Positions 2,859-20,000 of a stretch of 20,000 nucleotides of DNA are shown here, in pieces. How positions within the stretch are numbered: position 1 is the first letter of the stretch; the number at the start of each line of letters is the position of its first letter. Below the pieces are notes generated by a model. It was given only the letters and a program-made list of their open reading frames with translations, was not told the DNA's origin and did no database searches. This DNA is from an uncultured virus (IMG/VR IMGVR_UViG_3300028586_000786) (Duplodnaviria; Heunggongvirae; Uroviricota; Caudoviricetes): IMG/VR virus record IMGVR_UViG_3300028586_000786; one strand, written 5' to 3'. The position numbers and the translations under genes are program-made.

Positions 2859-3749
2859 ATGGATGCACCTCGCAACTCTTCGCCCGGCCCTCAGGCCGAC
2901 AAAACCGGCGCGCGTCGGTTCAACGACCACATGGTGCTCGACACCCAGGGCATCGCAATGCTCGACACCTGGTTCCAGCAGACCTACGACGTCGACACCC
3001 AGCCGGCTACCCAGGTGGTGCAGTTGAAAGGCATCGACCTGTGCGTAAAACTACGCAATCGCCGCGGCATGCGCTTCGTCGGCGTTGACCTGAAGGCGGA
3101 CAATAACGTCAGCGGAAATATCAGCCTCGAGCTTATCTCGCAGGACCGCCCGAACTCGCGCCACTCCGAGCCAGTCGTGGGCTGGACGGGAAAGCAGATG
3201 CCACTGGTTGCCCAGCTCTTCGTTCGGACCGGCGAGATGGTGGTCATTGATATGACCATGTTCTATCCCTGGCTGTTCGCGCAGCTCAAAGACATTGTTG
3301 AAGGGCGCGCGCAAGGGTTCGCGATGACCGGGGCCTGGCTGAGCGCTACGCCGAACCCGACGTACCAGAGCCATAACATCATCGTGTCTATTGCGACCTT
3401 GCTCGACGAAGCGCCTGGCTGTATGTATCTGCGCGCCGGCGACGTCCTGTCCGCGGACCAGTTTGCCTCGCTGCGCCCAGCAGCGGGCTTTGAGCCGTTG
3501 CTGCTTCCGAAGCGGCCTTACGATGCAAAGACTGCCGCTGAGGCCCTGGAGGAGCGATTGGCGGCCCTCGGAGGGTATGACGTGAAGCCGCAGCTGACCG
3601 CAGAAGAAAAAGAGCGCCTGCTGCGATTCCTTGAGCCGCGGGTCAAGTACAGCCGGAAGAACGAAGAAATTCGTAAAAAAGGCCTGGCCCTCCAAGCGAG
3701 CCGGCCGCGTTTGACGCTGCCTGAAGACGCTGCGCCTACTTCGGCGTGA
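2859..3749 (+). CDS. putative PD-(D/E)xK restriction-endonuclease-like protein
   Basis: GID...VDLKAD...SGNISLE...GW pattern typical of mobile-element PD-(D/E)xK nucleases; CTATAC 2820-2825 supports the ATG 2859 start. Confidence 0.6.
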   Translation: MDAPRNSSPGPQADKTGARRFNDHMVLDTQGIAMLDTWFQQTYDVDTQPATQVVQLKGIDLCVKLRNRRGMRFVGVDLKADNNVSGNISLELISQDRPNSRHSEPVVGWTGKQMPLVAQLFVRTGEMVVIDMTMFYPWLFAQLKDIVEGRAQGFAMTGAWLSATPNPTYQSHNIIVSIATLLDEAPGCMYLRAGDVLSADQFASLRPAAGFEPLLLPKRPYDAKTAAEALEERLAALGGYDVKPQLTAEEKERLLRFLEPRVKYSRKNEEIRKKGLALQASRPRLTLPEDAAPTSA

Positions 3750-3763
3750 ACCGAGAGTCGTCA

Positions 3764-4072
3764 ATGAGCACTTTCGTATATGAGCCGCTCGGTCGACTCG
3801 CTAAGGCCGTTGCCAAAACCGGTGTCCTGCCGGTCCGCGCAGTTGCAGCCGTGGCCGCATTGCTCTTACCGCTAGGCGTTCACGCACCAGCGGACGCTGC
3901 CGGCGCCGCGCGATTTGAGGTGAGCTTCGTCATTCGGGCCGAGTGTACTGTCAAAGCTACTGAAGCAAGGGTTCCCACTGTCGAGTGCAATGGCACAAGT
4001 CCCTATCGGATTTCGCCTACGATGACCCCAGGCGCAGGGTTCCGAAGCGCTGGCTGGACCATCACATTTTAA
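3764..4072 (+). CDS. small secreted beta-rich protein
   Basis: hydrophobic signal-like segment (AVAAVAALLLPLGVHAPADA), then FEVSFVIRAECTV and a second Cys; terminal Phe. Confidence 0.55.
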   Translation: MSTFVYEPLGRLAKAVAKTGVLPVRAVAAVAALLLPLGVHAPADAAGAARFEVSFVIRAECTVKATEARVPTVECNGTSPYRISPTMTPGAGFRSAGWTITF

Positions 4073-4790: not shown

Positions 4791-5684
4791 ATGTCATCCG
4801 TTACCCCTGAAAATCGTCCCGAAGTTCGTATTCATGACGCAACCGTTAACATCTGGTGCGAAGACCCGTTTTCCGAGCAAGTCAAGAGCATCTTCAAGGC
4901 CGTGAAGGCCTTGCTCAATCGTCGCGGCTTCTCCCTCGGCCCGGACCCTGTTGTCCATCATCGAATCCTCGTGAAGACGCATCGTGCTGGCAAGGCGGGG
5001 GACCTCGAGGTGGCAGCGAGTTTGTCTGGTCGGCACATCGAAGTCCAGTTCTTCCAGAACGTCCACCAGGTGCAAAATCCGAATGGCGGCAGGTACGACT
5101 TCGATAAGCTCGCGCGCATGCCTTTCCTTTTGCGTAAGCGCGCGCAGCTGGAAATGAACAAGGTACGGGAGCTGTTGGTCAGCAAGTTTGGCGCCTCGGT
5201 GACGAAAGGTGACGTTCCGTTGCCTCACCCAAACCGGTCGACGGCTGTCGAGTTCATCGAGGCTCGCAACCGTGGCAGTGGGCACTTCAAGGCTGAGTTG
5301 GGCCATGCAGACTGGTACGCTGACTACAACCGTCAAACCGGCGACCGCCAGCTGCTTACGCATGGCACGCCCGTGTACTTCCGCGACCGTAAAGGCCGCT
5401 GGGCTTGCGGCGTTGCGTACTACAACCTGAACAACATGTGGTGGGTTGCAGTCGGTAAGTATGAGGTACGCAATCTGTGCTCGACGGACCTTTTCGTCAG
5501 GCCGCCTCTCAATGTTCGCCTGAAGGCCAATCTGGCGCTGAGCATCAAAAGGGTTGCGACTCTCATCAAAGAAGCAGTAGCGGCGGAGGATTTCCTGCGC
5601 GCCCAGCAGCTCAAACTCGTGCGTGACCGTCTGCAAGCTCAAGAGGCCGCGGCGGTGGCGGCGCCTGAGCTGGCCGAGGCATAG
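4791..5684 (+). CDS. phage/plasmid-type hypothetical protein with C-terminal UVR-like helical hairpin
   Basis: AAGGAG RBS; CTACAC 4755-4760; IKEAVAAEDFLRAQQLK resembles the UvrB/C motif. Confidence 0.8.
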   Translation: MSSVTPENRPEVRIHDATVNIWCEDPFSEQVKSIFKAVKALLNRRGFSLGPDPVVHHRILVKTHRAGKAGDLEVAASLSGRHIEVQFFQNVHQVQNPNGGRYDFDKLARMPFLLRKRAQLEMNKVRELLVSKFGASVTKGDVPLPHPNRSTAVEFIEARNRGSGHFKAELGHADWYADYNRQTGDRQLLTHGTPVYFRDRKGRWACGVAYYNLNNMWWVAVGKYEVRNLCSTDLFVRPPLNVRLKANLALSIKRVATLIKEAVAAEDFLRAQQLKLVRDRLQAQEAAAVAAPELAEA

Positions 5685-5731: not shown

Positions 5732-6256
5732 TCACCAAGTTCTGAACTGAGTCATTACTTCGGTCTCGCGCGCGGCTTCCGCTTCCAGGGCCGCAATCGC
5801 TTCTTCCCAAGTGCAGGCAACAAACTCTTTATGGGTCTGTCGCCCCTCTTTTAACCGCAATGCACGGCGCACGGCCACCTCGACGGCAAAGCGGTCCGCA
5901 ACCTGCCTGCACGCAACTGGAACGAAATACCCAACGACGCCGGCCGAGTCGAGCGATTTGATGCGCTCGGCTACCGCTCCGCGCGTCTGGCCAATCTTGT
6001 ACAGATTCGCGTGCACTGGGTTGGTAACGACATATACCGTGCCTTCGGTCCTGGAGAAGTGCTCCTTCAAACACATCCAGGCAAAGTCTTGCCAGTCGTC
6101 GGCGAGGGGGTGGTCGTCAAACGTGGAGATGAGGTTGGTGTGGCCCCGGCGGGCCAGCTCGCACAGGTAGGTGCCGAGTCGAACAGCCTGCCCGTTTTGA
6201 AAAAGGTTCCAAAGCGCTTTACGGGAGGTCGGGTGCAATACGGGAAGAGGGGGCAT
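5732..6256 (-). CDS. GIY-YIG family (T5orf172/MUG113-like) protein
   Basis: GTVYVV...LYKIGQT...ER...L...E..V...KEF motif series. Confidence 0.8.
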   Translation of the reverse strand: MPPLPVLHPTSRKALWNLFQNGQAVRLGTYLCELARRGHTNLISTFDDHPLADDWQDFAWMCLKEHFSRTEGTVYVVTNPVHANLYKIGQTRGAVAERIKSLDSAGVVGYFVPVACRQVADRFAVEVAVRRALRLKEGRQTHKEFVACTWEEAIAALEAEAARETEVMTQFRTW

Positions 6257-6406
6257 CGACCGTATAGCAGGTGGGGTTTATGCTCACGAGGCATGTTTGC
6301 TGGCGCGCAACACATTTCAGGCATCCTCTAGCTTTAGCGTGATTGCGCTTGGGCAATTAAAGGAATTCAGTTACGCTGTTCTTTACCTTGATTGAAGAGA
6401 GCGTTC

Positions 6407-6748
6407 ATGTCAAAAGCTGAAAGGCTAGCTGCCCTCAAAGCTGATATCGCACAGAGCCGCACTGCAGGGGAACTCGGCCATCCTGAGATATGCAGTGTTA
6501 TCGCGAATATTCGTAAAACAATGGCAGCTCACGGATTGACGCCGGCGCACCTCGGCTTCGACCTGACGCCGCAGCCTCGAAGGCAGCCTGTGCCCTCGCG
6601 CCGAGTAGGTGCGGGAGTGGTGCGATTTCAAGACCCAGCGTCGGGTAAAACATGGACTGGGTTTGGGAAGCCACCGGCATGGATTGCCGGCGCCGATAAT
6701 CGGGAAATGTTTCGCATCAAGGACGGCACAGCCGGAGTTAGGGCTTGA
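6407..6748 (+). CDS. H-NS family nucleoid-associated protein (betaproteobacterial type)
   Basis: C-terminal FQDPASGKTWTGFGKPPAWI matches the H-NS DNA-binding motif; I...MAAHGLTPAHL N-terminal segment. Confidence 0.85.
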   Translation: MSKAERLAALKADIAQSRTAGELGHPEICSVIANIRKTMAAHGLTPAHLGFDLTPQPRRQPVPSRRVGAGVVRFQDPASGKTWTGFGKPPAWIAGADNREMFRIKDGTAGVRA

Positions 6749-8229: not shown

Positions 8230-9126
8230 CTATGCCCCGTAGCGAGTCATTTCTTCCACGAAGGCTGCGGCGCAGCGCGAAGTCACCTCGACGTTGTACC
8301 CGCCCTCCAGGCACGCGACCACTCGATGGTTTACGCTCAGGATTTGCTGCGCCACCCAGGCGTAATCTTCATCGCCCAAGCCAATAGTGCCTAGCGGGTC
8401 TTCTCGATGGGCGTCGAAACCGGCTGACACCAGGATAAGCTCCGGCTCGAAGTTCTTCACTTCAGCGAGCATGGTGGTCCAGGCCGCTCGAAACTCCCTT
8501 GCGGAACTGCAGCGGGCCCGCAGGATGTTGTCTGGGCAGAACTCGCCAAGGGCCAGATAGGGGTAGCCCATCTGGTACGTTTCCGCGAACAGCACATGGC
8601 CATTGCCCATGAAGGACAGGACGGTGCCGTCCCCCGAATGGGTGTCGATGTCCAGCACTGCAATACGGCTCACTCCCCGTGACAACGCATGGCGTGCTGC
8701 GATGGCGACCTGATTGGTGAAACAGAAGCCGCCGGCCGACTCACTGTGAGCGTGGTGCCCTGCATAAGTCACGCAAAACGCGTTCGACGCTTCCTCGTCC
8801 AACACCGAGTCGACCGCCTGGCAGGCGGCGCCGGCAGAGAGACCAATCATCCGCCAGGTGTGCCGGTTCAGGACCGTCTCGTTGTCGATATAGTGGTGCT
8901 TTCCCTCTTCGCGAGGCGTGTAAGCGTGCAGCTGGCCGACGAACGCACTGGTGTGGTTCCGCTCGAGCTCTTCCTTGGTTGCAAGTCTGGCGTCGCAAAG
9001 GCGAATACCGGGCACCGTTGCCACACGCGCGTAGATGCGCTCGAGACGGTCCGAGGCCATAGCTTTGTGGTTGGCGGCCGCGTCATGCAGGAAAATGTCG
9101 GGGTGCGAATAGACGTGAGTGGTCAT
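8230..9126 (-). CDS. histone deacetylase family (Zn-dependent amidohydrolase/deacetylase)
   Basis: GHHA, GGFCFTN, LDIDTHSGDGT, SAGFDAH and LEGGY motifs all present. Confidence 0.93.
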   Translation of the reverse strand: MTTHVYSHPDIFLHDAAANHKAMASDRLERIYARVATVPGIRLCDARLATKEELERNHTSAFVGQLHAYTPREEGKHHYIDNETVLNRHTWRMIGLSAGAACQAVDSVLDEEASNAFCVTYAGHHAHSESAGGFCFTNQVAIAARHALSRGVSRIAVLDIDTHSGDGTVLSFMGNGHVLFAETYQMGYPYLALGEFCPDNILRARCSSAREFRAAWTTMLAEVKNFEPELILVSAGFDAHREDPLGTIGLGDEDYAWVAQQILSVNHRVVACLEGGYNVEVTSRCAAAFVEEMTRYGA

Positions 9127-9774: not shown

Positions 9775-11286
9775 TTACTGCGGGTCTTGACCTGACGTAC
9801 CAAGTGCCCAGATAGTGACTCGGCCGGTAGCCGGATGCACCTTGACGGATTGGCCCGGGCTGAGCTTGGAGCAGGCTCCGTCCATGCGCATGATTGGCTT
9901 GTCCTGCTCGCGGCAGACCGTCACCAGGTGAGCGAGACGTCCGCCCGCTTCGCAAACAACTGCACCGGCCGCCATCGCCTGGAGTTCGAACTCAACACCT
10001 GCATGGGGCACCACGAGGATGCTGTTGCGGTCGATATTCTCGCTGTCGGCAAATACGACGGTTCCCGAAACTTCCGGGCCGCGCGCCAGCACCTGCACTT
10101 CGAAGTTGAGCAATGTGCGCTGTACTTCGAACATCATGTCCAGGATAGCCCGATACTCACGGCTGTCATGGCGATAGGTCTTGGCGTCGATGGCGAAGCC
10201 GCAACCGAGCCAGACGTCCGTATGGAACGGGTTGTCCTCAGCCGTCTTGAAGCTGTCCGGGCTGATTGCCTCGTATTGCGGCATCAGGGCATGGGCCGAC
10301 GTCTGCGAGAGCGCGTAGCAGTACAACGCCCGCTTTGGTGCCCGCAGGGACAAGTACGTACCATCCTTCGGGTCGCGCCAGCGATAGTCCTGCCAGCCGT
10401 ACTCGCTGTCGCCATCGGCAAACGCAGTGATGCGTTCACGCAGCGCCAGAGCTTCTGCTTGTTGGCGGGCGGCGAAGGCTTCCGATGCTGCATGTTCAGC
10501 AGCGAGCTTTGCTTCCAAGTCCTGCTGTTCTTCCGCAGAAAGGGAGGCTGTGGCCGCGACCGGCTCAGGCTTTGCTGCTTCGTCCGGATGGATGAAGCCA
10601 TAGCGCTGGGCATAGCCGCTGGTAGGCAGGTAGCTGCGCGCCGACTCATACGCCTTCTTGAAGCAGGTGTTGTCGTTTTCGCGCCAGAAGGGTGCTACCC
10701 CTTCGGCGACCTGGCGGAACAGAACGATTACGTCATTCTGCCGGGTGCGGCTCATCAAAATGGCTCGGTCGGTGCGCGGATTGTCGGCGTAGTGCATGGC
10801 ACGCAGCTCCAGGGAGCGAGCTGGCAGAACAGTCGCGTATGCCGACTTCGCGTACACCGATTCCAATTCCGACGTCCATCGTTCACGCCTGACGAAGCAA
10901 GGCATTGCACTGTCCCGGTACTCCGGCAGTGCCAGTGCATGGTGGAAGTCGGCCTTGCCCAGTGTGTCAAGCACCAAGTAAGGCTCGTACATCACTTTGC
11001 CGTCCCGGACGAACTGGCCCAGGCAATATTCGGCGGTGTATCGCTCCTGCAGCTGCTGCATGACGTCAGGGTCTTCCGCCACCATCAGGATGGTGTCGTT
11101 TTCGCCTGTCAGCTTGAAGCGGCCTTCGATGATGCCAATGGCTTGGTCGTAGCTCATGCCGACCAGGTTGTCGACCAGGTGGGCGAGGGCGCCTTTCCAG
11201 TCGCCATCACCCATGCGCTCGCGCGCTTGTTCGGTCAGGCTGGCACCGCGGATGGTAAAGGAAATCATGTGGCTTGTAACGGTCAT
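9775..11286 (-). CDS. large protein with C-terminal PEP-utilizing enzyme mobile (phosphohistidine swivel) domain
   Basis: C-terminus AGAVVCEAGGRLAHLVTVCREQDKPI...G..V.V...G.V; AAGGA RBS; CTACAC 11322-11327. Confidence 0.85.
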   Translation of the reverse strand: MTVTSHMISFTIRGASLTEQARERMGDGDWKGALAHLVDNLVGMSYDQAIGIIEGRFKLTGENDTILMVAEDPDVMQQLQERYTAEYCLGQFVRDGKVMYEPYLVLDTLGKADFHHALALPEYRDSAMPCFVRRERWTSELESVYAKSAYATVLPARSLELRAMHYADNPRTDRAILMSRTRQNDVIVLFRQVAEGVAPFWRENDNTCFKKAYESARSYLPTSGYAQRYGFIHPDEAAKPEPVAATASLSAEEQQDLEAKLAAEHAASEAFAARQQAEALALRERITAFADGDSEYGWQDYRWRDPKDGTYLSLRAPKRALYCYALSQTSAHALMPQYEAISPDSFKTAEDNPFHTDVWLGCGFAIDAKTYRHDSREYRAILDMMFEVQRTLLNFEVQVLARGPEVSGTVVFADSENIDRNSILVVPHAGVEFELQAMAAGAVVCEAGGRLAHLVTVCREQDKPIMRMDGACSKLSPGQSVKVHPATGRVTIWALGTSGQDPQ

Positions 11287-14565: not shown

Positions 14566-14901
14566 TTACCAGCTGACTCGAATGAAGTAGCTGCCGGCAG
14601 GTAGAACGCCGCGGCGAACCAGGTCGTTTAGAACGATGCCGGCCTGATATGCCGGGATATCGCCGTCGGCAATTGCAGTCCTGAGAGTGGTCTCTTCCCA
14701 AGGCTGCAGCGAGCCGTCGACGTCACTGAATTCGTGCGTGGTGTCGTTCGGAGACTCCAGCAGTTCAATGCCTTTTCCGTAGACGGCAAGTGTGCCTTCC
14801 CTGAAGCTGATGTCCCGCAGATGGTAGCAGGTCTTCACCTTGAGGGCGAAGCTCGCAGTCAGCGGATTGATGGCGATAGGTGGGGTAGGGGAATTGCCCA
14901 T
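14566..14901 (-). CDS. hypothetical protein (starts MGNSPTPP)
   Basis: AAGGA RBS; CTATAC 14933-14938 on minus strand. Confidence 0.7.
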   Translation of the reverse strand: MGNSPTPPIAINPLTASFALKVKTCYHLRDISFREGTLAVYGKGIELLESPNDTTHEFSDVDGSLQPWEETTLRTAIADGDIPAYQAGIVLNDLVRRGVLPAGSYFIRVSW

Positions 14902-15000
14902 AGATGTCCTTGTATGTGTGGCGGGTAGAACCGTATAGGGAGGAAAAGCCTGGCGCTCAAGAAAAACCCCGCGCGCGGTCAAGCGGCGGGGGTTCGAAAA

Positions 15001-15354
15001 TCAGGCGTGGGCCAGTTCTTTACGCTGGTTCTGCTGTTTACGGGCGTAGGCTTCCTGCTGTTTTGCCTTGTGGGCAACTTCCTGACGCCAGGCGGCAATC
15101 TGGGCCGCATCGGTGACCAACTCGAGAGTTTCGTCTGCGTACATGCGGGCCTGGTAACGCAGCCGACGGCCGATAGCGGGGAACACCACCAGCAGCTGGT
15201 TCGTGTCCTTGTTGTAGAACGTGACCTCGCCGAGGCGGTCTTTCATCTTGGTCGCGGCCTCGGTAATGAAGCGCGAGAGCTGCGTCGGGTCGACGCGCAC
15301 GACCGAGCCAACGGGATACTTCTTGAGCGTTTCTTCTTGGGAGAGACGGGGCAT
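15001..15354 (-). CDS. hypothetical protein (SH3/KOW-like N-terminal part, coiled C-terminus)
   Basis: AAAGGA RBS; CTACAC 15394-15399. Confidence 0.7.
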   Translation of the reverse strand: MPRLSQEETLKKYPVGSVVRVDPTQLSRFITEAATKMKDRLGEVTFYNKDTNQLLVVFPAIGRRLRYQARMYADETLELVTDAAQIAAWRQEVAHKAKQQEAYARKQQNQRKELAHA

Positions 15355-15410
15355 GTTTTTGTCCTTTCAGGCGACATCAGTTAATCCTCTCCCGTGTAGC
15401 TACCGACCGC

Positions 15411-16361
15411 TCAAGCTGTTTCGCAAGCAGAGGCACTCGCTACCTTCTCGAGCCGTTCCCACTCTTTGCAGATAGCCCGGCCGCGGCGGTCCAGGTGCTT
15501 CAACTTCATCTTGAAGCTAACCGAATCGGCGCCGCCGAAGTCATCCTGATTAGCCCACAGCGCGCCCAGGGCGGCAACGAGCAGCAGCGGTGCGTCGACA
15601 TCGGCTGCGAAGGCCGGCACTGCCTCCGCTCCCATGGTATGAAGCTCCATGTCTCGCTGCATTAGGCGGGCTTCCTGCTCCGTTCCACCAACCGCGCGCC
15701 AGATTTCGGCCGATTTGTTGGCGTGGTCAGGGAAGTGAGCTCGCCCTTCAACCTCCTGGTACACGAAAGGCTTGCCGCAGTCGTGGTGTCCCAGGTAGCG
15801 AACGAGCACAGCGCGCTTCTCGCGGGGAAGCAGCAGCTGTGGGGAGCTAAAGAACCACTCAGGCACCCAGGCCGGCGCGGCTTCACGAGCCAGGTAGCCG
15901 TTTCGCACCATGGTAAGGATGTTTGCCTTTTCCCGCGTTTGCAGGCAGTGCTTCCACACACTCACCGAACCTTGAGGCGTAGCGCGCATCGCGCGGTTCA
16001 GGAAACCGCGCAGCACATCCTGCGGCACGCCTGCTTTGCGAGCCTTCTCAAACGCTTCTACGCTCAGCTTCGCCCGCGCCAGGCGCAAGGTCGATAGCTG
16101 CTCCGCCGTGAGCTCAGCGACAAGAGCCGGATGGATGCTGTCGTTGCCAATGCCCCGGGTGGCTTTCATGAACCCCGCGTAGGGGTCGCGGCCGTGGTGC
16201 AGTCCAGCCGGATTCGTGTAGGGGCAGAACCCGGACCATGGCTGCCAGCCGCGCAGCATGCTGAACAGAACGTAGTCCTGGGGCGTCGCGCTTTTGTCGC
16301 GGATACGTGCACGAATCGTTTCGATGCGAGCTTTGTCTTCAGGCGAGCGGCGGGTCTTCAT
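15411..16361 (-). CDS. fusion protein: unknown N-terminal domain plus HD phosphohydrolase domain (CCA-enzyme-type HD)
   Basis: ATGA overlap with the upstream stop; SVWKHC...HHDCGKP...G..HFPDHANKSAEI. Confidence 0.8.
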   Translation of the reverse strand: MKTRRSPEDKARIETIRARIRDKSATPQDYVLFSMLRGWQPWSGFCPYTNPAGLHHGRDPYAGFMKATRGIGNDSIHPALVAELTAEQLSTLRLARAKLSVEAFEKARKAGVPQDVLRGFLNRAMRATPQGSVSVWKHCLQTREKANILTMVRNGYLAREAAPAWVPEWFFSSPQLLLPREKRAVLVRYLGHHDCGKPFVYQEVEGRAHFPDHANKSAEIWRAVGGTEQEARLMQRDMELHTMGAEAVPAFAADVDAPLLLVAALGALWANQDDFGGADSVSFKMKLKHLDRRGRAICKEWERLEKVASASACETA

Positions 16362-16765
16362 GCTGCGACTCCTTCGGCGCGCGCCATCTTGAGCTTCCAC
16401 AGCGGGTAGCCGCGCAGCAGGGGGCGTTCGGCATCGGTCAAGGGGCGGGTGCCAATGGCCGAGTGCCCGGTATTCCAGTCCGGCTCGAAAAACATGTCGT
16501 GCTCGATGTCCAGGGACTCGAGGTGAGCCTTCGCCTTGTACAGCGCCGCCAGGTTCGGCACGGCCAGGACAATCAAGCTGGCGATACCGTGCTCCGGGCG
16601 ATAGAAGCTTCGGCCGGCTTCAGCGGCGGCATGTGCCGCTTGGACCATCTGCTGCTCCGGAGCCAGGTCAGTGCGCACGAAGGCGTAGATAGTGCGCTTC
16701 TGGCCGTCGTGAGCCAGGTCGGTGTTGCGTGGTGCTGCCTTGAAATTCGTCGTTTGCGTAGTCAT
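16358..16765 (-). CDS. peptidyl-tRNA hydrolase 2 (Pth2/PTRHD1)-like protein
   Basis: YAFVRTDL...VQAAHA, LIVLAV...L, FFEPD...SAIGTRP...L..YPL: PTH2-superfamily pattern. Confidence 0.85.
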   Translation of the reverse strand: MTTQTTNFKAAPRNTDLAHDGQKRTIYAFVRTDLAPEQQMVQAAHAAAEAGRSFYRPEHGIASLIVLAVPNLAALYKAKAHLESLDIEHDMFFEPDWNTGHSAIGTRPLTDAERPLLRGYPLWKLKMARAEGVAA

Positions 16766-16774
16766 GGGATGCTC

Positions 16775-16882
16775 TCAAAAAAAGGATTGGTCGAAGTTGG
16801 TCGAACAACGCTTTGAGGGCGGTCCCTGCGCAGTACGCAAGGTATGGGGGGTGCGACGGGTGGGGCAGGAAATCTATTGCAT
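16775..16882 (-). promoter_or_regulatory. leader ORF with in-frame amber codon: MQ*ISCPTRRTPHTLRTAQGPPSKRCSTNFDQSFF
   Basis: AAAGG RBS, ATG-CAA-TAG; read-through frame ends at a TGA overlapping the pth2-like RBS; 17 nt identical to the second leader. Confidence 0.7.
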
Positions 16883-16913
16883 GGCAGTGCCTTTCGGGTG
16901 TGGGGGATACGGG

Positions 16914-17417
16914 TCAGTTGTCGGCGGCGCCGAACTTTTCTTGCAAGCGCAGGTACTCGGCACGCTCGGCCGCTTCCTGCTCTTCGCGCCGGCGCACCGC
17001 CGCCTCTGCACGACGGGCCTCTTCGGCTTGCTTTGCCCGTTCTTCGGCGGCCAGCTTCTCGGCCTTCAGCTGTTCAAACAGAACAGTCACGCGAGCGTTG
17101 ATGGCAGCACGCGCCTCCTCCGCCCAGCCTTCGCCCGTCTCCGGGTTGCAGTGCGCTTCGACTTTCCAGCAATCCGGGTCGTTGTTGTCGTCGCGGCCGT
17201 TGAGCAGCAGGGTGTACTCGAACGAGCAGTACTCGCGACCTTTGCTCTCTTCGTCGAAGAGCCGGCGAGCCCATTCAGCAGCCACTTCCTCTTTGGTAAA
17301 ACAGACCTTCAGGAAGAAATCCGACGACGACCGCTCCATGACGCAGCCGCGGCAGGTGTCGACGCCGTCTTCGCGGTAGCCGATGAGCGTGTAGGTGAAC
17401 TCAGGTGCGATATTCAT
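16914..17417 (-). CDS. hypothetical protein with CxxC and C-terminal charged coiled coil
   Basis: ATGA-coupled to the upstream gene; GGGAG RBS. Confidence 0.75.
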   Translation of the reverse strand: MNIAPEFTYTLIGYREDGVDTCRGCVMERSSSDFFLKVCFTKEEVAAEWARRLFDEESKGREYCSFEYTLLLNGRDDNNDPDCWKVEAHCNPETGEGWAEEARAAINARVTVLFEQLKAEKLAAEERAKQAEEARRAEAAVRRREEQEAAERAEYLRLQEKFGAADN

Positions 17418-18052
17418 GCTGCACTCCCTTCAGTGTTTGCGTTGGACAGCAGGGCTTCCCAGGTAGCGGTGAAGTAGGCGGGCGCATAGTCGCCGTTGAT
17501 GTCCCAAGTCAGCACCAGGCCATCACCATCCACGGCCACTTCGTCAGGGTCCAGGTAGGCGCCCCAGTGAGACCTCGGGCACTTGCCGGCTTCCTGCGCC
17601 AGCTCTTCTGCACGCTCGCGGTACTTATCCCTCAAACCGTCGAGTAGGTGGGTCGGCTCACGTTGCTCCTCGGCGCGCAGGTTCTCCGCAGCTTGCTTGG
17701 CGCTGACGCACTTATGCTTTGCCGCCGAGATGGCTCGCTCCGCAGCGAGGGCCTGCTCCTTCAAGTCCTGCGCCTTGAGCTCGATACCGGCCTCCAGGTC
17801 GTCAGCCACTTCGCCGAGGCGAGGCAGCGCGTTCCAGTGCTGCACCGCGGTCTCCATCGAGCACCAGAATTGCTCGATGTCCGTGAAGCCGCAGGTGCGG
17901 CACTTGATACGCACCATCTCGGAGCTGTCGTAGCGGCTGTAGCCATAGCGATGCGCCGCTCCGTTACAGCGTGGGCATGCTTTCAGAGGGGCTTCGTCCC
18001 AATCAAAGTCCGCATCTACGTCGGTAGCGTTCATGTCGTTCGGCGTCGTCAT
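17414..18052 (-). CDS. Lar (restriction alleviation)-like Zn-ribbon protein with C-terminal extension
   Basis: LKACPRCNG...IKCRTCG...AVQHWN; GGAGG RBS. Confidence 0.75.
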   Translation of the reverse strand: MTTPNDMNATDVDADFDWDEAPLKACPRCNGAAHRYGYSRYDSSEMVRIKCRTCGFTDIEQFWCSMETAVQHWNALPRLGEVADDLEAGIELKAQDLKEQALAAERAISAAKHKCVSAKQAAENLRAEEQREPTHLLDGLRDKYRERAEELAQEAGKCPRSHWGAYLDPDEVAVDGDGLVLTWDINGDYAPAYFTATWEALLSNANTEGSAA

Positions 18053-18055
18053 GGA

Positions 18056-18544
18056 TTAGGCCTCCACAGTGCGGGCGACAGCGCTTTCGGCCGGAGCGAA
18101 CTCCGCTGCGCCCATAACCAAGGCCTTGTGCTTGCTGTACGAGCTCAGACCCTGGGCCTTCACGAAGTCACCGGCTTTGGTAAAGCCGTCGACCAGCGCA
18201 GCCTTTTGCGCGTCGCTCAGCGCTAGCGTCTGACGGGTCAGGAACGAGGCGAGGTACGGAACGGTCGACAGAGCTTCAGCGACCGCCAGGTAAGGGGTGT
18301 CGCCTTGGTGCTTTCGTCGATTCGGGCTGAACGTCTTGTAGAGGTCGCGGCCATGGAGAATGGCGTGCGCAGCAAACATCGACGAGGACAGCTTGTCGCC
18401 AGAGTTGGCGAGGGCTTTCCAGGCAGCGTTAAATGCCAGGTATTCGTCTTTCGACGAGAAGAAGTGCAGGTGTGCGTCGGTAACGCGCAGCGAAGAGGTA
18501 GCTGCCGTAGCGGCGACGGTATTGATGGTGTTGATTGCGGTCAT
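18056..18544 (-). CDS. hypothetical protein (starts MTAINT), similar to the N-domain of the 15411-16361 fusion
   Basis: AAGGAG RBS before ATG 18544; AILHGRDLYKTFSP...GDTPYLA resembles SMLRGWQPWSGFCP...GRDPYAG. Confidence 0.8.
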   Translation of the reverse strand: MTAINTINTVAATAATSSLRVTDAHLHFFSSKDEYLAFNAAWKALANSGDKLSSSMFAAHAILHGRDLYKTFSPNRRKHQGDTPYLAVAEALSTVPYLASFLTRQTLALSDAQKAALVDGFTKAGDFVKAQGLSSYSKHKALVMGAAEFAPAESAVARTVEA

Positions 18545-18669
18545 GGTAGTGCTCCTTGGACGGAAAAACAATGGGTTGCTTGCAGCCGCGAAGTGCGGCA
18601 AAAGAAAGGGCAACCGTGTCCAGGAGGACCGCGGGGGAGCGGGCAGGAAATCTATTGGTGAGCCATCAT
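18541..18669 (-). promoter_or_regulatory. leader ORF with in-frame amber codon: MMAHQ*ISCPLPRGPPGHGCPFFCRTSRLQATHCFSVQGALP
   Basis: GGAG RBS, CTAGAC box 18704-18709; TAG at 18652-18654; read-through frame ends in an ATGA overlap with the next gene. Confidence 0.72.
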
Positions 18670-18725
18670 GGCATGCTCCAAATGGGTTAATCGTTGTTGC
18701 TTCGTCTAGCGACGCTGTTTATATC

Positions 18726-18932
18726 TTACTTCAACACAAAGACAGGCTGGGCTTGATTCCAGCTCCCCGTGGCCTTTGGGGCGGTACACATTTCGATGTC
18801 AGCCCTGCTGGGTGCGCCATCAGTCCTAAGAGGCATCCGTTTCCGGAGCTTCCGTGCAATGTGTTGCGTGACCTTCCACGCCGCTGCCTTTGTGTTGACT
18901 CTCTTCCGAGAATCGTTTCTTGCAAACATCAT
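18726..18932 (-). CDS. possible small basic protein (68 aa)
   Basis: ORF only; lies between the tRNA and the leader on the same strand. Confidence 0.3.
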   Translation of the reverse strand: MMFARNDSRKRVNTKAAAWKVTQHIARKLRKRMPLRTDGAPSRADIEMCTAPKATGSWNQAQPVFVLK

Positions 18933-19016
18933 GCCCCAGTTTTGCTAGGGCTGCAAGCATTTCAGTAGTCGGGCTTTTTGTCTTTCATGACCGCTCCGTT
19001 AACTTCAGTTAGTATT

Positions 19017-19111
19017 TGGTCAGTCCGACAGGATTCGAACCTGCATGGGAGAAGTCTCCTTCTCGCCGACCTTAGGGGGCCGGTGCTTTCCGCCGTTTAG
19101 ACTACGGACCG
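19017..19111 (-). tRNA. class II (Leu-like) tRNA with abnormal 8-nt anticodon loop CCCCUAAG; putative amber (CUA) suppressor
   Basis: acceptor CGGTCCG/CGGACTG, A73, encoded CCA; T-arm GCAGG-TTCGAAT-CCTGT; anticodon stem CCGGC/GTCGG; variable arm GAGAAG-GAGA-CTTCTC. Confidence 0.88.
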
Positions 19112-19120
19112 TATGAACAC

Positions 19121-19149
19121 AGTATAGCAAGTGTTTAGGCGTATTGCAA
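19121..19149 (-). promoter_or_regulatory. sigma70-type promoter of the tRNA
   Basis: TTGCAA-17 nt-TATACT, ending 9 nt upstream of the tRNA 5' end. Confidence 0.85.
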
Positions 19150-19169
19150 CAGGCTTTTAGCCAGACAAG

Positions 19170-19196
19170 AAAAAAGCTGACCCGAGGGCCAGCTTT
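19170..19196 (-). terminator. intrinsic terminator
   Basis: AAAGCTGGCCC..GGGTCAGCTTTTTT on the minus strand after the stop at 19203. Confidence 0.75.
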
Positions 19197-19202
19197 CATG
19201 AA

Positions 19203-19730
19203 TCAGGCGGGAGGTGCGACTTCCGTGTGCCCGGTAACAACTTGGACCTGCTTGTACACCTGGTTCGGCTCGAACAGCCGGTAGCCTTTGTACTGGATTC
19301 CCTTTTGCGAGCAGTACTGCTTTGCCCGTTCGACCATTTCAGCCAGAACGTCTGCTGGCGGCAATTCGTCGACAAAGATGGCGACGCTTTCGTAGGCGGG
19401 GAAGTTTGCCTTGGCCTGCTGAGGATTGAGCTGAGCTCGAACCTCGGCAGTATCGTCGAAATGGCTGCCATAGCCGTCATTGAACCTCCCCGGGGAGGGC
19501 CAGATGCTGGCCGGCCGCGCGCAGCCGCGGTCATCCGTCTCATCAGTCACGTGCTCTTCAAACCAGAGCGCGTGTTTGAGGTCCTCGAGCGATTCGTTTG
19601 CGATGCCTTGCCCGACGCCGCATTCGCCGAAGCGGCCGGTCATGAACGCACACATTTCGCGCTCGAAGCTTCCAGAGTAGCTGTCGGTGTCGATAACGAC
19701 AATCTTGCTGGAAGGGTGGTCAACTGCCAT
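19203..19730 (-). CDS. hypothetical protein
   Basis: AAAGGA RBS; VIDTDSYSGSFEREMCAFMTG...ECGVG, YESVAIF. Confidence 0.8.
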   Translation of the reverse strand: MAVDHPSSKIVVIDTDSYSGSFEREMCAFMTGRFGECGVGQGIANESLEDLKHALWFEEHVTDETDDRGCARPASIWPSPGRFNDGYGSHFDDTAEVRAQLNPQQAKANFPAYESVAIFVDELPPADVLAEMVERAKQYCSQKGIQYKGYRLFEPNQVYKQVQVVTGHTEVAPPA

Positions 19731-19805
19731 GATTTCCTTTGCTGGGGGAGGTGGTGGCCCGATGATAGTCCATCAGGCCGGGAGTTCGCAGGAGATGATG
19801 GGTTG

Positions 19806-20000
19806 TTATGCCGCAGCCAAGCCAAGAAGGTTCTGAGCTTCTGCCAGGTCCTGTTGGGACTCGAAGCCGAGTTCGGCCTTCACTTCCCCACTTGCTGCGC
19901 AAGCGCCAGGATTCCACAGCATACAGTTGATTCCACGCTCTGCGAGCTTGGACAGGATGGCTGGAACATTGTTGGTGATGACGGAGGTATCAAATGCCAT
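19806..20000 (-). CDS. hypothetical protein (possibly 5'-truncated by the window edge)
   Basis: ORF reaching the window end. Confidence 0.6.
   Translation of the reverse strand: MAFDTSVITNNVPAILSKLAERGINCMLWNPGACAASGEVKAELGFESQQDLAEAQNLLGLAAA

Follow-up and report, generated by a model that had tools for sequence, protein, structure and literature searches.

The minus strand of a 20,000-nucleotide stretch from an uncultured virus (IMG/VR record IMGVR_UViG_3300028586_000786; the whole stretch is referred to as the window) carries a tRNA gene with CUA in its anticodon loop and, downstream of it, two short leader frames with an early in-frame UAG. This arrangement raises the question of whether the genes that follow are expressed only when the stop codon is overridden. 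On the sequence comparisons presented here, the locus is likely to be a translational gate, opened by nonsense suppression, in front of genes for tRNA 3'-end enzymes. The gated enzymes would probably be made only when the element's own tRNA overrides UAG, because leaders with an early UAG precede the genes.

The tRNA gene and the operon

The wider context of the window is not clearly that of a phage and looks more like a megaplasmid or another large element. The features of the locus are given below in the order of transcription; L050 and L051 denote a distant relative.

19121..19149, minus strand: sigma-70-like promoter, TTGCAA, 17 nt, TG-TATACT (with TG extension)
19017..19111, minus strand: type-II-like tRNA, 95 nt (ARAGORN, Rfam)
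18541..18669, minus strand: leader 1, ATG ATG GCT CAC CAA TAG, then open frame ISCPLPRGPPGHG…ALP
18537..18632, minus strand: predicted hairpin of leader 1 and gene X, minimum free energy -45.5 kcal/mol, z -2.35
18056..18544, minus strand: gene X, 162 aa, no known family; 10 homologues; conserved in L050
17414..18052, minus strand: 212-aa protein with an N-terminal Lar-like zinc ribbon (below curated cut-offs)
16914..17417, minus strand: 167-aa protein with a charged C-terminal helix; conserved in L050 (6919-7416)
16775..16882, minus strand: leader 2, ATG CAA TAG, then frame ISCPTRRTPHTLRTAQGPPSKRCSTNFDQSFF-TGA
16358..16765, minus strand: Pth2-fold protein, 135 aa, peptidyl-/aminoacyl-tRNA hydrolase-like fold
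15411..16361, minus strand: 316-aa protein, helical domain at the N-terminus, HD domain at the C-terminus (fold and profile matches)

The promoted minus-strand tRNA with CUA in its loop, described in an earlier note made from the sequence, was recovered at 19111-19017 behind the promoter at 19149-19121. The promoter ends about 10 nt upstream of the tRNA 5' end and was the sole such site across 14900-20000, the mean in shuffled sequences being 0.9. A promoter-like site, TTGCGG-17-TACAAT, was read from the L050 sequence at an equal distance from that locus's own tRNA.

The window tRNA has a 7-bp acceptor stem (C1-G72), A73, an encoded CCA and a long variable arm with a 6-bp stem. It departs from a standard suppressor in its anticodon loop of 8 nt (CCCCUAAG, with CUA inside), in carrying C rather than U at position 33, and in its borderline Rfam tRNA score (28.9 bits against a gathering score of 29); a D-stem mismatch was also present. 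Among 27 suppressor tRNAs in the loci compared, it alone has an 8-nt loop, and no insertion or deletion was reported in the anticodon loop of the divergent copy from run X4. The window tRNA may suppress only weakly, read four bases, or have no activity.

If the tRNA read UAGN with a +1 shift, the meaningful product would lie in the +1 frame and not in the RGPP frame. ARAGORN does assign a four-base anticodon ('ccta', CCUA) within the 8-nt loop, and expanded anticodon loops are a classic feature of +1 frameshift suppressors. However, the fourth base is A in both leaders, whereas CCUA would pair with UAGG, and the +1 frame of leader 1 passes the gene X start in a frame other than that of X. Moreover, the same leaders occur in L050 together with a tRNA whose CUA loop has the normal 7 nt, and it is in the zero frame that RGPP and the stop/start overlap are both conserved. 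An 8-nt loop can also read triplets, as in yeast mitochondrial tRNA-Thr1. Four-base reading is accordingly given very little credence, and triplet reading of the UAG is preferred.

For gene X, no matches were obtained in Pfam, PHROGs or NCBIfam, and the Atlas search yielded no usable match. The C-terminal half of the 212-aa protein is conserved at L050 6536-6922. The gene at 16765-16358 had been called Pth2-like, and this assignment was supported: its product has 40 homologues and scored 15.4 bits with Pfam PTH2 against a cut-off of 23, while the best 11 Foldseek rows for its structure model (pLDDT 91.9) were all archaeal Pth2 or human Bit1, with probability 1.0 and TM values of 0.63-0.73 normalised to target length.

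The ATG of the HD gene overlaps the TGA of the Pth2-like gene in a start/stop-coupled ATGA, and in the window the HD gene has no in-frame stop of its own. Its product carries the invariant residues H193, D194, C195, G196, K197, P198, H213 and D237. With the structure model (pLDDT 96.2), VIA-align gave Z 15.2 to residues 247-448 of 3wfo_A, the runner-up row reaching 11.1, and the top Foldseek rows were 3wfo-3wfs; a profile search against PDB sequences returned the same 3wfo region (E 0.005), and PHROGs assigned phrog_14850 (4e-32). The best structural and profile match is the HD domain of a class II tRNA nucleotidyltransferase (A. aeolicus A-adding enzyme, PDB 3WFO-3WFS), and the motif H…HD(C/I)GKP…H…D is shared with these enzymes, although the domain scores below the Pfam and NCBIfam cut-offs. 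In contrast to them, the HD domain here occurs either by itself or in fusion with a Pth2-like or an X-like domain, and the nucleotidyltransferase head is absent. The Pth2-like and CCA-enzyme-type HD assignments are supported by these fold and profile matches, and the putative targets of the two enzymes are most likely tRNA 3' ends.

The 316-aa protein had been proposed as a fusion of an X-like domain with an HD domain. The HD part was borne out by the 3wfo matches, while the likeness to X was confirmed only weakly: comparison of X with the N-terminal helical domain gave E 0.02 in BLASTP (27% identity over 74 residues) and E 0.0019 in hhalign (probability 14.5%), and the domain is possibly X-like.

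The UAG leaders and their predicted hairpins

Both leaders that had been noticed, Q-UAG-ISCP..RGPP before gene X and Q-UAG-ISCP..QGPP before the Pth2-like gene, are present on the minus strand. Leader 1 encodes MMAHQ-TAG-ISCPLPRGPPG…, with the UAG as sixth codon (18654-18652), RGPP at 18633-18622, and a GGAG 6 nt upstream of the first ATG; its TGA stop (18543-18541) overlaps the gene X ATG at 18544. Leader 2 encodes MQ-TAG-ISCP…AQGPPSK…, with the UAG as third codon (16876-16874) and QGPP at 16828-16817. In the window it shares the reading frame of the Pth2-like gene, and its TGA lies 9 bases upstream of the ATG at 16765, not on it. In related strains (runs X3 and X4), one T is missing at 16777, and the leader 2 stop and the ATG form an ATGA overlap. 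The 16-mer AATAGATTTCCTGCCC, which spans the TAG, occurs in exactly two copies, one per leader; the shuffle expectation was 0.09, and two copies were found in 0 of 200 shuffles.

The HD protein of L050/L051 is 46% identical to that of the window, and the order tRNA, leader, X, two genes, leader, Pth2-like, X-HD is kept. The L050 tRNA is canonical, unrelated to that of the window, and has CUA in a normal 7-nt loop. Each L050 leader opens with a start and 1-4 codons before the TAG, continues with RGPP in the same frame, and ends in a stop that overlaps the ATG of the gene behind it: leader 1 reads MRKQL-TAG-VFCSFPRGPPG…, its stop overlapping the start of the following gene, and leader 2 reads ML-TAG-…SRGPPKSR…, its TGA overlapping the ATG. 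The leader architecture was seen in only two independent lineages, the window and L050/L051; runs X3 and X4 add near relatives of the window. The stop-and-motif leader with a linked CUA tRNA, which the earlier note proposed to look for in homologs, was thus found in L050/L051.

About 40 fetched loci were scanned on both strands for ATG, GTG or TTG, at most 8 codons, a stop, and an open frame with [RQK][GA]PP. With TAG as the stop, only four leaders were found, those of the window and of L050/L051 (10 matches including alternative starts and a duplicate locus); TAA gave 0 matches and TGA gave 4. The GPP motif is in frame with the TAG in all four leaders despite differing codons (GGU CCU CCU/CCA in the leader 1 copies; GGA CCG CCC and GGC CCG CCC in the leader 2 copies), and 19-27 codons remain in the leader after it.

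In the predicted fold of leader 1, the RGPP-coding stretch GCGGUCCUCCUGGAC pairs with the AAGGAG of gene X and the bases around its AUG, with inner stems GGUUGC/GCAACC and GCCGC/GCGGC. L050 leader 1 has a like predicted fold with another inner hairpin (z -3.33), and alignment of the two revealed one compensated exchange, CCU/CCA against AAGG/UGG. In window leader 2, predicted pairing joins the QGPPS-coding stretch to the ribosome-binding site and AUG (z -2.15); for L050 leader 2, a different fold was predicted that did not reach significance (z -1.6). With four leaders, conservation of the peptide and of the RNA are inseparable, because the GPP codons double as the anti-Shine-Dalgarno strand.

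In another explanation, the leaders are ordinary tiny upstream frames (MMAHQ, MQ) that end at TAG, and the downstream genes use their own ribosome-binding sites. Expression would perhaps be modulated by the hairpin alone, in response to temperature, to a protein or to a small RNA; the in-frame GPP would be a by-product of a CCUCC-type anti-Shine-Dalgarno strand, and the tRNA-like gene would be a decayed tRNA or an integration-site remnant. The coincidence of the GPP codons with that strand, the strong AAGGAG 7 nt before the gene X ATG, the non-canonical tRNA just under the Rfam gathering score, and the restriction of the leader form to two lineages fit this explanation. Against it, both leader 2 copies have CCG CCC, not CCU CCU, yet encode G-P-P in the TAG frame; in every leader, the frame opened by read-through stops at or next to the following start codon; L050 swapped in an unrelated tRNA but retained the CUA anticodon; and the scan finds such frames only with TAG at these sites. 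In phage homologues, the protein itself lies behind the stop without another start. On balance, ordinary upstream frames are considered unlikely, and suppression of the leader UAG remains the preferred reading.

Start-proximal stops in homologous loci

Of 40 distinct loci that were informative, 36 have an in-frame stop in the Pth2-like and/or HD frame. The loci are mostly from jumbo phages, GAP32, XacN1, RsoM2USA, ME3 and Arash among them. The stop usually follows an ATG and 1-6 codons, with a Shine-Dalgarno sequence positioned for that ATG. When frames of 100 codons or more were compared, an in-frame ATG no more than 8 codons upstream of the 5' stop was present in 27 of 44 target frames (25 TAG, 2 TGA, 0 TAA) and in 128 of 1142 other frames (40 TAA, 40 TAG, 48 TGA); at least 15 of these 40 TAG cases were, by eye, further Pth2-like or HD genes.

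Several phages have no start codon in the interval from the gate stop to the strand that is the first conserved one in the Pth2-like protein: the first start after the gate is at residue 47 in Arash and 108 in RsoM2USA, and locus L019 has none. In the GenBank records of these phages, the gated gene is unannotated or split. Many HD genes have a conserved Met 4-15 codons past the gate, a potential un-gated start, and 37 of the best 150 family representatives were called from it.

The identity of the stop followed that of the linked tRNA. TAG stops occurred with a CUA tRNA in 18 loci and TGA stops with a UCA tRNA in 2, while a TGA stop paired with a CUA tRNA was found in 0 loci; the exception was L018, with TAG stops and a UCA tRNA as the only one in view. 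Fisher's exact test, calculated by hand on loci that are not phylogenetically independent, gave p 0.014; because of this lack of independence, there were fewer events than the locus counts suggest. The un-gated pairs L054, L064 and L065 adjoin sense tRNAs. In 16 gated loci, a suppressor tRNA was not found within the fetched 8 kb on either side; XacN1 and RsoM2USA, both among these 16, have published CUA tRNAs elsewhere in the genome (XacN1: PMC5852040).

By hand tally, the base after the start-proximal TAG was a purine in 39 of 40 gates (28 A, 11 G, 1 C); both window leaders have UAG-A and both L050 leaders UAG-G. Suppression is favoured by a 3' purine.

The gate might instead sense mainly release-factor activity or general translation stress, with the tRNA setting only a basal level. 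Very short frames terminate inefficiently, and RF1 is in constant competition with read-through; RF1 status had been proposed as an input in the earlier note. The stop codon, however, covaries with the anticodon of the linked tRNA (UAG/CUA, UGA/UCA), and the gate therefore appears to be tied to the tRNA and not to one release factor. Sensing of release-factor activity is regarded as quite improbable, and control by the tRNA is retained.

Under a changed genetic code, TAG would be sense and the leaders would belong to longer proteins as their N-terminal portions. The CUA tRNA fits this reading, and recoded phages with suppressor tRNAs are well known (PMC13037316). Nevertheless, TAG ends 3 of 22 predicted genes in the window, and is for this reason not a general sense codon in the element; all of the genes are intact under the standard code. 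The leader frames are, in addition, out of frame with gene X and with the L050 Pth2-like gene, and the annotation of cultured phages that share this gate follows the standard code and shows normal gene density. The probability of a changed code is close to negligible, and TAG is treated as a stop that is overridden at the gate.

From these comparisons, the window locus is a leader-borne variant of a widespread phage module, and the combination is not confined to the window. The idea that UAG read-through by a co-encoded tRNA switches tRNA-related genes draws strong comparative support from the leaders of the window and L050 and from the matched stops. The comparison lent no support to two further proposals of the earlier note, repair or rescue by the enzymes and a counter to host defences.

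Proposed mechanism and relation to known systems

The scheme that we infer begins with transcription of the element's own tRNA with CUA in the anticodon loop, and comprises two translation units, each opening with a short UAG-bearing leader. When the UAG is unsuppressed, ribosomes would release a peptide of 2-5 residues there, and the hairpin would then stay closed, with the (R/Q)GPP-coding stretch paired to the following gene's ribosome-binding site and AUG. When the UAG is read as a triplet by the tRNA, ribosomes would enter the 5' arm of the hairpin, where pausing on the RAPP-like (R/Q)GPP motif is probable and would hold the hairpin open. They would terminate at or beside the next start codon and re-initiate. 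Leader 1 would turn on gene X, and leader 2 the Pth2-fold hydrolase and, via the ATGA overlap, the HD protein.

The Pth2-fold enzyme would cleave the ester bond of blocked aminoacyl- or peptidyl-tRNA, and the HD protein would be a phosphoesterase, as is the HD domain of the CCA-adding enzyme, which in E. coli has 2',3'-cyclic phosphodiesterase and phosphatase activities. As to purpose, we tentatively favour an interlock that would make the output of tRNA-end enzymes depend on the element having a functional pool of its own tRNA.

The leader motif (R/Q)(G/A)PP suggested by the earlier note fits a published class of arrest peptides, the RQH class, with the motif (R/Q/H)(A/G/D)(P/G/S)(P/G), in which RGPP and QGPP are named (PMC10987492). 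As described there, these peptides stall with the codon of the third motif residue in the P site, the stalled ribosome on secM opens a stem-loop hiding the Shine-Dalgarno sequence, and RAPP-like motifs in ordinary proteins are mostly non-stalling (PMC10987492). Like SecM, ApcA, ApdA and ApdP, the window locus has an upstream frame with (R/Q)-G-P-P (PMC10987492, PMC10951233) and a stem-loop over the ribosome-binding site of the regulated gene, which a ribosome on the motif would open. Unlike RAPP-type leaders, the window leaders lack both a signal peptide and a membrane segment, and the genes downstream include neither Sec nor YidC. The motif is near the C-terminus in known arrest peptides, whereas the 19-27 further codons follow it here, and the regulated step is predicted to be entry into the motif through the UAG, in contrast to release of the stall by protein export.

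Phages with recoded stop codons carry their own suppressor tRNAs and use TAG or TGA as sense in late genes (bioRxiv 10.1101/2021.08.26.457843, PMC7886860, PMC13037316). As in these phages, an own CUA or UCA tRNA would make some of the element's genes suppression-dependent in a standard-code host. In contrast, TAG is otherwise a stop here, just one or two genes are gated, these are always the same pair of tRNA-end enzymes, and the stop lies at codon 2-13 or in a separate leader instead of being scattered through late genes. For the two CUA tRNAs of XacN1, no target had been found in the published account (PMC5852040).

PTH2 and CCA-adding enzyme genes of jumbo phages have been interpreted in terms of RNA repair and ribosome rescue (PMC7824862); the protein families and kinds of genome are the same as here, and the genes often lie inside tRNA gene arrays. 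The word 'suppressor' has 0 occurrences in the main text of that article, which appears to make no mention of an in-frame stop or of pairing with a stand-alone HD domain. A published description of a suppressor-gated tRNA-end-enzyme module was not found. The bar minigenes of lambda are two- or three-codon frames with a stop, linked to peptidyl-tRNA drop-off and hydrolase biology, and their likeness to the window leaders, as short stop-ended frames upstream, is one of analogy only.

Start-proximal stops in Pth2-like and HD genes

In jumbo phages and many viral contigs, Pth2-like and HD genes were neighbours or parts of one fused gene, often within arrays of tRNA genes. Adjacent pairs were present in the window, where the two genes overlap in the sequence ATGA, and in phages GAP32, CBB, XbC2, Arash and ME3. 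Fusions were observed in XacN1, CM1 and several viral contigs, and RsoM2USA was among the jumbo phages carrying both genes. In the usual layout, a Shine-Dalgarno sequence and an ATG were followed by one to six codons, a stop codon, and a conserved protein without a start codon of its own. Such an in-frame stop is referred to here as a gate.

Start-proximal stops in jumbo-phage genes
Salmonella phage Arash, Pth2-like gene: ML-TAG-NKHWIYTFVR…
XacN1, HD-Pth2 fusion gene: MK-TAG
RsoM2USA, Pth2-like gene: ML-TAG
RsoM2USA, HD gene: MKS-TAG
GAP32, Pth2-like gene: MAQ-TAG
ME3, Pth2-like gene: MT-TAG

The HD genes of GAP32 and XbC2 had their own ATG and an internal TAG near codon 46. The stop of the jumbo-phage module thus lies inside the enzyme frame. 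In the window and in its relative, locus L050, the stop is part of a distinct leader frame, and each enzyme gene begins with an ATG of its own.

After curation by hand, 36 of 40 informative distinct loci were gated. The exceptions were L024, which was ambiguous, and three un-gated loci, L054 and the megaplasmid loci L064 and L065. All counts leave out L046-L048, L055-L057 and the duplicates L022, L028, L032 and L051; L049, in which the gene start is missing, was uninformative. Loci L046-L048, obtained by a scan of genome contigs, proved to be merely the HD domains of CCA enzymes.

A control was performed on frames of at least 100 codons. An in-frame ATG at most 8 codons upstream of the 5' stop was present in 27 of 44 target (Pth2-like or HD) frames, and the stops of these 27 comprised 25 TAG, 2 TGA and no TAA. 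Among other frames the same arrangement occurred in 128 of 1142 cases, with stops evenly spread over all three codons; inspection by eye identified no fewer than 15 of the 40 TAG frames in this group as further Pth2-like or HD genes missed by tblastn.

The identity of the stop corresponded to that of the linked tRNA. TAG stops occurred with a CUA tRNA in 18 loci and TGA stops with a UCA tRNA in two (L031 and L044), no locus combined a TGA stop with a CUA tRNA, and one locus (L018) had TAG stops with a UCA tRNA alone in view. The match between stop and anticodon gave p = 0.014 by Fisher's exact test, computed by hand on loci that are related and do not represent independent events. A purine followed the stop in 39 of 40 start-proximal TAG gates, and a 3' purine context favours suppression. 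In 16 gated loci, no suppressor tRNA was found within 8 kb on either side. According to the respective genome papers, CUA tRNAs are located elsewhere in the genomes of XacN1 (PMC5852040) and RsoM2USA.

In many HD genes a conserved Met (M-x-x-C-x-Q) was present shortly past the gate, and a product starting at this residue could be made un-gated. The start was called exactly at this Met in 37 of the best 150 family representatives (P0078, P0088, P0111, P0133 and P0156 among them), and in P0068, a Pth2-HD fusion, the called start lay inside the Pth2 domain. Starts at the conserved Met fit gene callers blocked by an upstream stop, so public annotations of the HD family are probably truncated. If the gate reading is true, annotations need correction, as Pth2-like and HD genes are now missed, split or truncated.

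Two features of neighbouring genes were also recorded. In L023, the tRNA array that contains a TAG-gated HD gene also includes a phage tmRNA gene (3667-4045, tag AADNAPLALAA). In the ME3 locus (L059), a CCA-type nucleotidyltransferase gene precedes the CUA tRNA and the gated Pth2-like gene by 2 kb (3103-3765, 5503-5577).

The tRNA and the two leaders of the window

Features at the head of the locus, which spans 15411-19149 on the minus strand
19149-19121, minus strand: sigma-70-like promoter (TTGCAA, 17 nt, TG-TATACT), the sole such site in 14900-20000
19111-19017, minus strand: 95-nt tRNA gene detected by ARAGORN, starting about 10 nt beyond the promoter end
After leader 1, minus strand: gene X, 162 aa

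In this tRNA the acceptor stem has 7 bp, the CCA is encoded, the T arm is good, the variable arm is long and the D-stem contains one mismatch; it scored 28.9 bits against the Rfam tRNA model (gathering score 29). Its anticodon loop, CCCCUAAG, comprises 8 nt with a C preceding CUA (C at position 33), and ARAGORN called a four-base anticodon because the loop has 8 bases. The canonical amber-suppressor loop (7 nt, U33, CUA at 34-36) is not present in this tRNA. The loop C-U-NNN-A-A was found in 23 of the 26 other suppressor tRNAs of the compared loci, among which only the tRNA of phage ME3 also carries C33.

The tRNA lies about 0.35 kb upstream of leader 1 and 2.2-2.4 kb upstream of leader 2, and the CUA in its loop matches the gating stop UAG. 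From this linkage with UAG-gated genes we infer that the tRNA reads UAG in vivo. With its unusual loop, it may alternatively read four bases or be inactive. Triplet reading is supported by the conservation of the zero frame in the leaders and by the normal tRNA of L050.

Between the tRNA and leader 1 (18680-19016), a small frame (MKDKKPDY) was seen together with terminator-like hairpins at 18951-18933 and at 18763-18746, so the tRNA may be transcribed separately. No promoter of the operon itself was found.

Leader 1 begins about 350 nt downstream of the tRNA with GGAG, 6 nt and ATG ATG GCT CAC CAA TAG. Past the TAG, the frame stays open as ISCPLPRGPPG… and its final TGA overlaps the ATG of gene X. 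Leader 2 consists of ATG CAA TAG followed by ISCP…AQGPPSK…, with a TGA 9 bases ahead of the ATG of the gene for the 135-aa Pth2-like protein. In two public sequencing runs with strains related to the window, X3 (about 98% identity over 3 kb) and X4, the insertion/deletion table showed one T missing from the T-run at 16777-16783; no RNA run with the locus was listed. With this base gone, leader 2 ends on the ATG of the Pth2-like gene, and the stop/start overlap is therefore a common design of the leaders.

Sixteen bases around the TAG are identical between leaders 1 and 2; the expectation from shuffled sequence was 0.09 matches, and two matches were reached in none of 200 shuffles. A scan of viral contigs for the exact 17-mer around the TAG returned 15 loci, all in unrelated low-GC phage coding sequence, and these were rejected as chance matches.

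Conservation of the leaders in homologous loci had been set as a test by the earlier note, and TAG…RGPP leaders together with a CUA tRNA did recur in L050. This locus and its near-duplicate L051 represent one metagenome lineage, 46% identical in the 316-aa HD protein, with the whole gene order kept (the closest relatives, P0002-P0008, were 48-74% identical). The L050 tRNA is unrelated to that of the window; it has 76 nt and a normal C-U-CUA-A-A loop, again with CUA. Its leaders read MRKQL-TAG-VFCSFPRGPPG… and ML-TAG-…SRGPPKSR…, and the stop of each overlaps the following ATG. A scan of all fetched loci for the leader pattern yielded 10 TAG, no TAA and 4 TGA hits, with the TAG form solely at the four leaders of the window and L050/L051. 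At the level of sequence comparison, we consider these relatives the decisive evidence for the gate reading.

The leaders contain the motif (R/Q/H)(A/G/D)(P/G/S)(P/G), as RGPP and QGPP in the window and as RGPP twice in L050. It was in frame with the TAG in all four leaders, though the Gly/Pro codons differ between leaders 1 and 2. The leaders comprise 33-41 residues, with 19-27 codons downstream of the motif. This motif is that of the RQH arrest peptides, for which RGPP and QGPP are named (PMC10987492), and such peptides are described as stalling with the codon of the third residue in the P site (PMC10987492, PMC10951233). According to the same literature, most RAPP-like motifs of ordinary proteins do not stall (PMC10987492), and in secM a stem-loop hiding the Shine-Dalgarno sequence is opened by the stalled ribosome (PMC10987492, PMC10951233).

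The motif is common to RAPP-like arrest peptides and to the leaders described here. In contrast, RAPP-like peptides carry it near the C-terminus and combine it with an N-terminal export signal and release of the stall by Sec or YidC, neither of which applies here: no hydrophobic segment was detected in the leaders of the window and L050, and the genes downstream are not sec or yidC. The hairpin over the ribosome-binding site is, in the present case, a prediction.

In the predicted hairpin, the stretch coding for (R/Q)GPP forms the 5' arm, and the 3' arm comprises the following gene's start codon and ribosome-binding site. It was predicted in three of the four leaders, with z-scores of −2.35 (window leader 1), −3.33 (L050 leader 1) and −2.15 (window leader 2); for L050 leader 2 a different, weak fold was obtained. 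Leader 1 of L050 and of the window share the outer and middle stems and differ in the inner hairpin, with one compensated exchange in the anti-Shine-Dalgarno pairing. Peptide and RNA constraints on the GPP stretch therefore overlap.

Encoded proteins and the proposed switch

The earlier note had labelled two products as Pth2-like and as carrying a CCA-enzyme HD domain, and both labels were borne out at the level of fold. The 135-aa protein scored 15.4 bits against the Pfam family PTH2 (PF01981; E 0.021), below the gathering cut-off of 23, and one of its homologues (P0046) had a precomputed PF01981 hit. A model built on 46 sequences reached a pLDDT of 91.9, and the best 11 rows of a Foldseek search against the PDB were all archaeal Pth2 or human Bit1 (3erj, 1rlk, 1q7s, 1wn2, 2zv3, 1xty), with probability 1.0 and TM scores of 0.63-0.73 normalised by target length. 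According to this model, the protein has the Pth2 alpha/beta fold. Residues Y27, R31, D33, Q42, H45 and P95 are invariant in the family.

The stop of the 135-aa gene overlaps the ATG of the gene for the 316-aa protein. In the C-terminal half of the latter, H193-D194-C-G-K-P, H213 and D237 were invariant among 38 sequences of the HD family, and H138, H209 and H241 nearly so. The model (pLDDT 96.2) was aligned by VIA-align over 162 residues to residues 247-448 of 3wfo_A, which form the HD region in a class II tRNA nucleotidyltransferase, the A-adding enzyme of Aquifex (Z 15.2, rmsd 3.4 Å), the next row having Z 11.1. Structures 3wfo-3wfs occupied the top 11 Foldseek rows (E from 4e-3), and the profile of the HD family matched the same 3wfo region among PDB sequences (E 0.005). 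By clear margin, the modelled HD fold is closest to class II tRNA nucleotidyltransferases. No curated family in Pfam covered this protein, and NCBIfam TIGR00277 (HDIG) scored 13 bits against a cut-off of 27.6. The HD family is a large one: among 1.84 billion library proteins, 345 representative clusters matched with E 1e-30 or better. The enzyme activities of both proteins are presumed from these folds.

Neither Pfam, PHROGs nor NCBIfam assigned gene X to a family, and no usable match came from the Atlas. Next to it come genes for two proteins, one of 212 aa with a weakly matched Lar-like zinc ribbon and one of 167 aa. All elements listed by the earlier note were present. Gene X and the 316-aa protein's N-terminal domain resembled each other weakly (BLASTP E 0.02; hhalign E 0.0019, probability 14.5%), so homology between them is at most faintly indicated.

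Suppressor-tRNA-dependent translation of genes for tRNA 3'-end enzymes would account for this arrangement as follows. Without suppression, ribosomes would be released at the UAG after 2-5 residues and the hairpin would remain closed. With suppression, they would enter the hairpin, pause on GPP, terminate at the start codon and re-initiate; the HD protein would be translated next through the ATGA overlap. A gate operated by the element's own tRNA would tie enzyme output to the synthesis, processing and charging of that tRNA.

It had been proposed that UAG switching set by the tRNA could serve against host defences. The gate was supported by the L050 leaders, the 36 of 40 gated loci and the match of stop and anticodon; counter-defence is one possible role among several. 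Both enzymes belong to families acting on tRNA 3' ends, and their genes lie among tRNA genes. With low confidence, we favour an interlock or timer tied to the element's own tRNA; alternatively, the enzymes could clean up by-products of read-through or act back on the suppressor tRNA. Iyer and colleagues have interpreted the PTH2 and CCA enzymes of phages as RNA repair and ribosome rescue (PMC7824862).

A broader reading is offered as speculation that we regard as rather unlikely: large phages and megaplasmid-like elements would carry a dedicated tRNA-operated switch, in which the suppressor tRNA is both a trans-activator and a self-test of tRNA supply. The 3'-end enzymes would be made only once this tRNA had been transcribed, processed, CCA-ended and charged, and it would have no other target. 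The window would then be a second-generation form, its stop relocated to an arrest-peptide leader with a hairpin, which would act as a riboregulator with nonsense suppression as its input. If true, this switch would account for the 'orphan' suppressor tRNAs found in jumbo phages that use the standard code.

The XacN1 paper reports no identifiable target for its two CUA tRNAs (PMC5852040), the RsoM2USA paper names none for its CUA tRNAs, and the word 'suppressor' is absent from the main text of a jumbo-phage survey (PMC7824862). No description of stop-gated Pth2/HD genes was found in the full-text literature, a corpus with most subscription journals outside its coverage. As read here, the gate would be a variant of suppressor-tRNA-dependent translation and of arrest-peptide leaders. 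New in the window are a leader-borne version that combines an arrest-type motif with a predicted hairpin, the control of the Pth2-like gene and gene X by such gates, the non-orthologous tRNA with an 8-nt loop, and the setting in a 454-kb contig whose other genes are like those of megaplasmids or large mobile elements.

The suppressor tRNAs of standard-code phages have so far been without a known target. Together with its relatives, the locus suggests that a particular target recurs, the pair of tRNA 3'-end enzymes. If this holds true, it would constitute a natural gene switch operated by a tRNA, bearing on translation conflicts between phage and host and on the control of tRNA repair and turnover. 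It would also provide synthetic biology with a compact, portable amber-dependent expression gate, and the leader form of the window would extend RAPP-like arrest motifs past the control of protein export.

Wider setting and un-gated pairs

Other genes of the window, within the 454-kb contig
5732-6256: T5orf172 protein
6392-6748: H-NS-like protein
8230-9126: histone-deacetylase-family protein (E 1e-58)
9775-11286: protein with a PEP-utilising mobile domain

The setting looks more like a megaplasmid, genomic island or other large mobile element than a phage arm, since the genes of this cargo lie on both strands. A blastn search of 15300-19400 against phage and plasmid collections returned no match, and no related locus was confirmed by a single-protein search of viral contigs. 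Genome-wide recoding (code 15 or code 4) was considered and rejected: TAG terminates 3 of the 22 predicted genes, and the standard code leaves the genes intact. A comparison of coverage by stop-to-stop frames did not separate the three codes considered.

The un-gated Pth2-like/HD pairs directly adjoin sense tRNAs (L054 7388-7465, L065 4385-4462, L064 3675-3754), two of which have unusual A34 anticodons, Thr-AGU and 'Ile-AAU'. In the megaplasmids pMPPla107 (L064) and pBSY19_1 of Bosea sp. RAC05 (L065), the HD gene lies beside a gene annotated by PGAP as 'aminoacyl-tRNA hydrolase'. With the Pth2-like protein of the window as query, a tblastn search of plasmid sequences found nothing at E 1e-3; these hydrolase genes were thus missed, which indicates at least two divergent Pth2-like lineages paired with the HD domain.

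In L065 (4380-4930), the Pth2-like frame lacks a start codon ahead of the first conserved strand. A mini-frame, MNISH-TGA, lies just upstream, one base out of frame, and four-base reading of TGAC would lead into the Pth2 frame. ARAGORN called the neighbouring tRNA Ile-AAU; its anticodon loop is over-long. This Pth2-like frame may represent either a frameshift-type gate or a decayed gene.
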